Part shown: in pieces, positions 3,606 through 4,025 of the stretch
Position numbering within the stretch: the stretch's first letter is position 1
Layout: each line of letters starts with the position of its first letter
Origin: a virus
Lineage: Duplodnaviria; Heunggongvirae; Uroviricota; Caudoviricetes
IMG/VR virus record: IMGVR_UViG_3300045988_053025
DNA length: 22,965 nt
Direction: 5' to 3' (one strand)
Notes under the pieces: generated by a model
Told to the model about the DNA's origin: nothing
The model's input: only the letters and a program-made list of their open reading frames with translations
Databases searched by the model: none
Made by a program: the position numbers and the translations under genes

Positions 3606-4025
3606 TTATTTAATGGCATTAAATCCAGCGTTGATGGCTTCCGCAATATTGATGGCACTTGTTTTATCGAAGTGCCCATTCTGAATAAGCGCCGCATGCA
3701 GGCATTGTAACTTCATGTTGTATAAGTGTTCGCTCATGTAATCATTATCACTTTTTGCTTTAGCGTAAACAGCGCGAGAAATATCAAACACATCGCCTTT
3801 TTCCATTTCAGAACGTTGTGCTGTTATCCAGTCATGGAACGTAACGCTAGTACCATGGTCTTCGCTAAGAGTTAACCCGGCCAGTCCCTCACTCTGAATT
3901 ACTTCGTAATGCATTTCATTATCAGCAAAAACGCCATAAAAAATGCAGTCTTCAGCCTGAACGATACGAGAATATTTTAATGGCCATTCATTTAGATACT
4001 TAGCCAACATATCAATTGTCTTCAT
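3606..4025 (-). CDS. hypothetical protein (139 aa), orphan accessory ORF
   Basis: Minus-strand ORF with ATG at 4025-4023 and an AAGGTG Shine-Dalgarno (reverse complement of 4031-4036) 5 nt upstream. Oriented against the packaging operon. No family recognised. Confidence 0.55.
   Translation of the reverse strand: MKTIDMLAKYLNEWPLKYSRIVQAEDCIFYGVFADNEMHYEVIQSEGLAGLTLSEDHGTSVTFHDWITAQRSEMEKGDVFDISRAVYAKAKSDNDYMSEHLYNMKLQCLHAALIQNGHFDKTSAINIAEAINAGFNAIK

Follow-up and report, generated by a model that had tools for sequence, protein, structure and literature searches.

ORF139, an exchangeable cassette gene between terL and portal in phiV10-type prophages and a candidate counter-defence protein

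Acb4 and Tad2 are counter-defence sponges that act for the phage in lytic growth: Acb4, the family of PF13876, is a tetrameric sponge for CBASS signals, and Tad2, the family of PF11195 (DUF2829), is an anti-Thoeris sponge (bioRxiv 10.1101/2024.12.30.630793; 10.1101/2025.07.12.664507). Sponge domains are often fused in combinations, and Sequestin was found via Tad2/Acb4 fusions (bioRxiv 10.1101/2025.07.12.664507). On a larger scale, the accessory regions of phage genomes are known as anti-defence hot-spots (Silas et al., bioRxiv 10.1101/2023.04.06.535777).

This report focuses on ORF139, a gene encoding a 139-aa protein in a 22,965-nt stretch of viral DNA (the whole stretch that was analysed, hereafter the window). 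The region is 95–99% identical to the Uetakevirus phages HEMP4, PAS61, phiV10 and O157 typing phages 9 and 10, and judging from this sequence the host element of ORF139 is a phiV10/epsilon15-type (Uetakevirus) E. coli prophage. Matching prophages occur in 1091 of 5426 complete E. coli genomes, and 114 of these 1091 genomes carry the window's own version of the terL–portal interval. RefSeq lists ORF139 as the hypothetical protein WP_000848283, beside tRNA-Arg, and the literature published on this accession, or on phiV10 with tRNA-Arg, offered nothing relevant. We lean, by a modest degree, toward reading ORF139 as a new counter-defence (anti-immunity) protein whose gene is an exchangeable cassette of an accessory hot-spot between terL and portal.

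The ORF139 gene and the two modules of its product

ORF139 is oriented against its neighbors terL (2040–3515, plus strand) and portal (4949–6628, plus strand), and occupies a gap otherwise free of coding sequence; a 68-aa ORF (4728–4934, plus strand) lies between the ORF139 region and portal. The gene and its immediate signals are as follows:

3606–4025, minus strand: ORF139 coding sequence, 139 aa, the exchangeable slot cassette (ATG 4025–4023, stop codon 3606–3608)
4032–4037, minus strand: Shine-Dalgarno sequence AAGGTG, 5 nt before the ATG, in the invariant left border of the slot
3590–3601: perfect 12-bp palindrome GTGACATGTCAC, 4 nt past the stop codon, bounding the slot on the right
3585–3566: hairpin where terL and ORF139 converge, terminator-like when read on the minus strand, 20 nt past the stop codon

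The first-pass annotation had described a well-formed gene with an ATG, an AAGGTG ribosome-binding site (RBS) and a downstream hairpin, transcribed opposite to the flanking terminase and portal genes; all these signals were located, and the counter-orientation stands. The downstream hairpin (3585–3566) reads AGCCAGCCGATGAGCTGGCT, then TTGTTTTATC, with 7 bp followed by TTGTTTT, and the same hairpin (3566–3585) is annotated as a plus-strand terminator in phiV10.

ORF139 is a real gene under purifying selection. Its median pairwise dN/dS is 0.27 (260 pairs), with the same value for each half. Long antisense chance ORFs are numerous in the window, so that ORF139 could in principle be conserved but untranslated DNA; nevertheless, the dN/dS over these 260 pairs, the conservation of the RBS and start codon, a confident AlphaFold2 (AF2) model, and a domain-wise mosaicism that follows the predicted domain borders leave virtually no room for a spurious ORF. 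The composition of the gene is foreign to its surroundings, with a GC content of 39.5% (GC3 38%) vs. 54% in terL and 51% in the portal gene, and AGA codons, present at 6.1 per 1000 in the phage genes, number zero in ORF139.

The same annotation had called the ORF an orphan, a label that has to be withdrawn, as ORF139 belongs to a small family of enterobacterial phages. It is matched end to end by phrog_4846 (PHROG 4846, function not assigned there; E = 2.9e-88) and has 102 homologous clusters, all from Enterobacteriaceae, with full-length identity down to 55%; an identical protein is found on 270 contigs. The family is considered small because an exhaustive profile search of 1.8 billion representatives returned only 33 matches. 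Searched with the N-terminal domain by tblastn at E ≤ 5, isolated phages yielded HEMP4 and PAS61 only. Searches against characterized families gave a uniform answer: zero Pfam families at E ≤ 10, no match in NCBIfam or PADLOC for ORF139 or its separate modules, zero families among the PADLOC-DB defense-system HMMs, a single chance match (E = 0.55) in a sequence profile search of the PDB, and no match to the ORF139 model by fold comparison. Known anti-defence proteins showed no sequence, profile or fold likeness to ORF139.

A short segment of ORF139 (aa 18–34, window ~3924–3974) contains the motif RIVQAEDCIFYGV, which resembles the LVQGSDGNFYGTT unit of long tandem-repeat proteins. Such long proteins match ORF139 weakly in multiple stretches with E-values of 1e-5 to 1e-3, and the matches share a short LVQGSDGNFYG-type beta-hairpin motif with RIVQAEDCIFYG. 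Homology to these proteins was rejected, as probably only the beta-hairpin motif is shared.

Modeling of ORF139 as a monomer by AF2, with a 30-sequence family alignment, gave a mean pLDDT of 82.8; this run replaced an earlier model built from a mixed 26-sequence alignment (pLDDT 67). Two predicted parts are distinguished in the model:

3798–4025, minus strand: N-terminal alpha/beta domain (N-domain), aa 1–76, a1-b1-b2-b3-b4-a2, AF2 pLDDT ~85–93
3609–3749, minus strand: C-terminal helical-hairpin module (C-module), aa 93–139, with AF2 helices at 93–116 and 121–137

The modeled elements of the N-domain are a1 at aa 3–10, beta strands at 18–23, 29–33, 36–42 and 60–62, and a2 at 63–75, and the linker (aa 76–92) is disordered in the model. 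ORF139 is acidic (pI 5.1, net charge −8), about −7 of which is borne by the N-domain.

Both parts recur in other company. The hairpin module alone makes up a 61-aa protein that is widespread in Enterobacter, Citrobacter, Klebsiella, E. coli and Salmonella; elsewhere it is preceded by another acidic N-domain (123 aa, as in Enterobacter phage Tyrion) or by a Cys-rich extension (proteins of 190–195 aa), or it stands ahead of a third module (proteins of 201–204 aa). The N-domain, in turn, is fused in-frame to a complete Tad2 domain in a 168-aa protein (P0209/WP_250205060), whose N-domain is 96% identical to ORF139 over aa 1–74 and whose Tad2 domain is confined to residues 78–167. On this distribution, the N-domain and the helical hairpin are separate evolutionary modules that have been shuffled independently. 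The fusion, known from contig L055 and E. coli PF9285, is carried by 7 contigs, one of them a complete genome; at a frequency of 1 in 5426 complete E. coli genomes, it could be a recent accidental recombinant. A search with the C-module profile for single-chain fusions to known sponge domains found none.

Borders and occupants of the terL–portal slot

The gene lies antisense between terL and portal of ~40-kb phages in 79 of 80 viral contigs fetched with the family profile, and all relatives of ORF139 but one sit in this same slot of Uetakevirus-like phages. Across slot loci, the identity of the ORF falls to 34% while that of terL holds at 94–95%. phiV10 carries at this place the unrelated PhiV10p03 (PF13876): the window loses its homology to phiV10 at 3610/3611 and regains it at 4025, so that exactly the coding sequence is swapped. 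Such ORF-precise borders are common to all cassette types. On the left, the slot is bounded by an invariant ...GGGCATTTTTTTAAGGTGA that lies a few bases ahead of the ATG and includes the RBS; on the right, 148 of 182 loci have the palindrome GTGACATGTCAC, irrespective of the cassette they carry.

The invariant left border served as a cassette-neutral probe for a census of the slot, and 120 phage contigs were recovered by this motif alone. The first gene of the slot belongs to the Acb4 family (PF13876) in 60 of them and to the ORF139 family in 14; it is the 61-aa C-module alone in 8, another N-domain joined to the C-module in 6 and a Tad2-like protein (PF11195) in 3, the remainder being assorted proteins of no assigned function. 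Altogether, the terL and portal genes, which are 80–100% identical, enclose at least 12 cassette types unrelated to one another. The Acb4 and Tad2 assignments in the slot exceed the Pfam thresholds, with 120 bits for PhiV10p03 and its slot homologues. Cassette genes may also stand in tandem: operons were found in which the 61-aa C-module gene precedes Acb4, in which a member of the ORF139 family precedes an Acb4-like gene, and in which, after an ORF139-family member, a further gene comes behind a second hairpin/T7/RBS junction; in L045 the same hairpin/T7/RBS element separates two cassette genes.

Among the slot Acb4 genes (L070, L077, L079, L090–L200), the N- and C-terminal parts are near-identical and enclose a hypervariable central segment, between FTAxDG and LLTFCVL, which suggests a diversified ligand specificity; some of these proteins have Cys-rich C-terminal extensions. 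Further cassettes without annotation occupy the same platform in L143, L195, L045, L157, L095 and L064. They encode a 143-aa Cys-rich protein, proteins of 89, 110 and 97 aa, a 138-aa membrane protein, and a 246-aa protein with membrane and coiled-coil segments, and are candidates for counter-defence or exclusion genes.

The slot thus resembles in kind the anti-defence hot-spots of phage accessory regions, since variable, unrelated genes lie between conserved core genes and validated anti-defence families (Acb4, Tad2) are found at the site. As in accessory regions and lambdoid morons, the small, uncharacterized products are encoded by DNA of foreign composition, with a terminator downstream. 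Unlike in those regions, the slot has ORF-precise borders, at the RBS on one side and 4 nt past the stop codon on the other.

Its occupants invite comparison with the described sponges. Acb4 (Phage_gp49_66, e.g., PhiV10p03) shares with ORF139 the slot, the strand, the RBS, the upstream hairpins and the downstream palindrome; at ~120 aa it is likewise a small phage protein, built of a beta core plus C-terminal helices, and its gene is sometimes found in tandem with members of the ORF139 family. However, ORF139 has no PF13876 match in Pfam at E ≤ 10, hhalign gave a probability of 0.2% between the ORF139 family (A3) and slot Acb4 (A7), and BLASTP detected no real similarity between ORF139 and PhiV10p03. 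Tad2 occupies the same slot in some phages and is naturally fused, as a complete domain, to the ORF139 N-domain in P0209, but ORF139 itself contains no Tad2 domain according to Pfam, and the fusion is rare. Sequestin (PF21825), a short alpha-helical sponge, may be similar in kind to the C-module, which is a ~50–60-aa, all-helical and mostly stand-alone unit, restricted to phages and prophages, modularly combined and adjacent to Acb4 genes. Nevertheless, neither ORF139, nor the C-module, nor the 61-aa stand-alone forms match PF21825 at E ≤ 10, and no fusion of the C-module to a known sponge was seen in a single polypeptide.

The position itself could suggest an accessory of packaging or of the virion, for instance a modulator of the terminase or the portal placed between the genes that it serves, as the family is conserved almost exclusively between terL and portal. 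Against this stand the opposite strand of the gene and its absence from most members of the genus, with unrelated proteins in its stead in most sister phages whose terL and portal are 94–100% identical. No homology to structural or packaging families was detected in PHROG, Pfam, NCBIfam or the PDB, and the profile and structure searches that the first-pass annotation had proposed gave no virion or packaging match. The one family member outside the slot, in contig L066, belongs instead to an unrelated podophage, where its neighbors are the scaffold and capsid genes. Taken together, these observations largely refute a packaging role, to which we attach scarcely any probability. They bear out the accessory nature of the gene already suspected from its orientation, and mark it as horizontally exchanged: it is absent in about three quarters of the sister phages, where unrelated genes are substituted at the same site, and its foreign composition and lack of virion or packaging homology point the same way.

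The L066 gene (3581–4153 of that contig) is the sole family member outside the terL–portal slot. It encodes a 190-aa protein made of a Cys-rich region, an alternative N-domain and the C-module, is inserted co-oriented between a scaffold-like and the major-capsid gene, and resides in a phage whose portal is 27% identical; its insertion in an unrelated podophage shows that the cassette moves between phage types. The L066 gene is flanked by GTGACATGTCAC on both sides. Overall, 300 copies of this palindrome were counted in 203 loci against a chance expectation of ~0.1, and it could be a protein-binding or a recombination site.

In the window, GTGACATGTCAC occurs three times (1325–1336, 3590–3601 and 21760–21771), each time just 3′ of an accessory-type ORF (981–1328, ORF139, and a P22-type antirepressor at 20786–21721) and ahead of a terminator-like hairpin. 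The last copy and its terminator follow a P22 immI-like module (19994–21721), composed of an Arc-like ribbon-helix-helix gene (19994–20455, minus strand), a 62-aa ORF (20525–20713) and the P22_AR_N antirepressor (20786–21721). The window also encodes a DUF551 protein at 306–875.

The upstream expression platform

Upstream of ORF139, and on the same strand, lie elements that were overlooked at first pass, namely a tRNA-Arg(UCU), a conserved structured RNA and two terminator-like hairpins. On the minus strand, the platform runs from a promoter-like element through the structured RNA, the tRNA-Arg, hairpin T1, a middle hairpin and hairpin T2 to the RBS and the cassette:

4659–4631, minus strand: promoter-like element TTGACA-17 nt-TACCTT, with hexamers and spacing conserved and a variable spacer sequence
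4301–4547, minus strand: conserved structured leader RNA, ~250 nt, 8 helices
4224–4300, minus strand: tRNA-Arg, anticodon UCU, co-oriented upstream of ORF139
4135–4180, minus strand: hairpin T1 (hairpin 4180–4145), a 14-bp stem then a T-run, directly after the tRNA
4102–4141, minus strand: conserved middle hairpin UUUACAGCA...UGCUGUAAA, whose 5′ arm shares the U-run of T1
4038–4060, minus strand: hairpin T2 (hairpin 4060–4045), GCCCGG-TTCG-CCGGGC then A+T7, abutting the RBS

The TTGACA/TACCTT element, ~600 nt upstream of ORF139, is the only conserved promoter-like site; it did not figure in the output of a stricter scan. That promoter scan, which covered positions 3300–5000, returned no promoter-like site and hence no sigma-70 promoter adjoining ORF139, and a search by eye from T2 to the ATG, in which a leaderless arrangement was also considered, found no acceptable −35 element. 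Since no promoter is nearer and T1 and T2 intervene, expression of ORF139 would require read-through of terminator-like hairpins, and the layout of one promoter and two terminators argues against simple constitutive expression of the gene. The T2 stem covaries between phages (GCCCGG/CCGGGC, GCCCAC/GTGGGC and GCCCTC/GAGGGC, i.e., GG:CC, AC:GT and TC:GA), and in the middle hairpin one A-U pair is exchanged for G-C in 3 of 15 sequences.

The middle hairpin contains an ATG at which a short upstream ORF starts (in the window, MTSCCKPVQPRKA). In other phages this ORF continues in-frame into the cassette gene, which misleads gene callers into products of 172–173 aa. A leader peptide or attenuator (ATGAC..TGCTGTAAACC, MTSCCKP...) was rejected as the main explanation because the frame and the stop vary between phages and the conserved bases are those of a covarying hairpin. 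Around the promoter-like element, an exact direct repeat, AATTATTACC, is found at 4633–4642 and 4695–4704 (minus strand), 62 bp apart; its conservation across phages is strong. The −10 region of the promoter-like element overlaps with one copy, and the second is situated a short way upstream of the divergently oriented 68-aa ORF and portal; the repeat is a candidate regulator-binding site.

The leader RNA lies directly upstream of the tRNA-Arg and is base-paired into its 5′ end. Its consensus has 53 pairs, with 97% of the cells paired, and compensatory changes affect 12 pairs, whereas shuffles gave 4.6 and slid controls no more than 7. The abundant G-U pairs point to the minus strand as the functional strand. 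Rfam holds no family that matches 4301–4547. The placement recalls the ROOL and GOLLD RNAs of phages, found near or linked to tRNAs (PMC12286853), but the present RNA is much smaller and unrelated in sequence. A long stem (ACAAC..GAGAGCAUU / AGUGCUCUC..GUUGU, window ~4308–4372, minus strand) keeps the same position in L021–L083 and is capped by a hypervariable insert of ~45 nt, often Y-shaped, with at least 8 unrelated caps among 20 phages; 100–250 nt of further inserted modules are found in some phages. Compared across phages, the hypervariable cap behaves like an RNA cassette. The tRNA-Arg(UCU) gene is carried by E. coli-type phages. In Salmonella-, Klebsiella- and Enterobacter-type phages devoid of it, a variable segment of 60–150 nt with an acceptor-like closing stem (GTGGTG...CACCAC) is found instead (e.g., L021, L023, L059 and L065); that of L065 keeps D-arm- and T-arm-like sequences together with a large insertion.

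The platform bears on two other functions that ORF139 could have. In the first, which goes back to the lysogen-expressed accessory gene of the first-pass annotation, ORF139 would be a moron expressed from the prophage to the benefit of the lysogen, through superinfection exclusion or anti-phage defense, rather than of the infecting phage. Being antisense to the late operon, the gene could be transcribed while the late genes are silent; its GC content is below that of its flanks, a terminator lies 3′ of it, the promoter-like element is of sigma-70 type, the co-transcribed tRNA-Arg(UCU) could serve the lysogen as well, and the slot occupants include membrane proteins of the sort that exclusion genes encode. 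Of the hallmarks of a moron, ORF139 thus displays the downstream terminator and the deviant composition, but not a promoter immediately upstream: unlike morons, the cassette lacks a dedicated promoter, and upstream of it come a structured RNA, a tRNA and two terminator hairpins, which covary and precede the RBS. Moreover, PADLOC gave no match, the commonest alternative cassettes are counter-defence sponges, and the N-domain is found fused to Tad2. We regard a lysogen-serving role as unlikely, albeit as an explanation that retains some weight.

In the second, the C-module, whose commonest stand-alone form has 61 aa, would be a regulatory or RNA-associated factor that binds the leader RNA, the tRNA or GTGACATGTCAC, or controls read-through or stability, and the N-domains would be add-ons. 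The C-module is indeed constant across architectures, its gene often stands ahead of Acb4 in an operon, its coding sequence always ends 4 nt before the palindrome, and the L066 copy has the palindrome on both sides. Yet a C-module is lacking altogether in half of the phages that share this platform, its RNA and the palindrome, which implies that the transcription unit does not need it; the palindrome also lies 3′ of Acb4 and of other cassettes; and no DNA- or RNA-binding motif was detected in ORF139 or its modules by Pfam-type profile searches. A regulatory role is accordingly given little credence.

Counter-defence as the favored function

The counter-defence reading of ORF139 draws on guilt by position and by fusion: in sister phages its slot holds Acb4 or Tad2, or combinations with them, and its N-domain is joined to Tad2 in a single chain. 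Tandem operons with Acb4-like genes, the borders shared with the other cassettes, the foreign composition and the small, acidic product speak for the same reading. Transcription would start from the promoter at ~4631–4659, with the cassette coming last after the structured RNA and the tRNA-Arg, and RNA polymerase would read through two hairpins of the intrinsic-terminator type. With two terminators to pass, expression is probably conditional, by antitermination or partial read-through; partial read-through, protein-mediated antitermination and RNA-mediated antitermination are all candidate routes. Early in infection, or once the prophage is induced, the protein would neutralize an immune pathway of the host: it would sequester a signaling molecule as an oligomer or bind a defense protein directly, the latter being slightly favored by its acidic charge. 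Each module may be an autonomous anti-defence unit, or the two may combine an effector with an oligomerisation unit.

Several observations count against this function. ORF139 resembles no known anti-defence protein in sequence, profile or fold; the slot also holds unassigned proteins, membrane proteins among them, which are possibly defense or exclusion genes; two strong terminator-like hairpins ahead of the gene are odd for a protein that would be required in abundance; and the Tad2 fusion is rare, while the C-module search found no fusion to a known sponge.

A broader proposal would unite these elements. The N-domain and the C-module would be two new families of immune inhibitors, acting as sponges or as direct binders, and the whole minus-strand unit a plug-and-play counter-defence operon, made of the promoter, the structured RNA with its hypervariable caps, the tRNA or tRNA-like module, the terminator hairpins and the cassettes bordered by GTGACATGTCAC. 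Its RNA elements would drive a put-like processive antitermination or act themselves as RNA counter-defence effectors. This proposal is decidedly speculative, and we think it distinctly improbable as a whole.

If ORF139 is indeed a counter-defence protein, one or two families (the N-domain and the 61-aa module) would be added to the short list of phage immune inhibitors, and these families are common in the prophages of E. coli, Salmonella, Enterobacter, Klebsiella and Citrobacter. The slot would in addition provide a catalog of ~12 candidates that share the regulatory context of Acb4 and Tad2. Genomic anchors of this kind have been a repeated source of new anti-defence and defense discoveries. 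Finally, the ORF-precise borders and the leader composed of a tRNA and a structured RNA suggest a reusable expression platform, and the leader RNA, these borders and the palindrome may prove more novel than the ORF139 protein itself.
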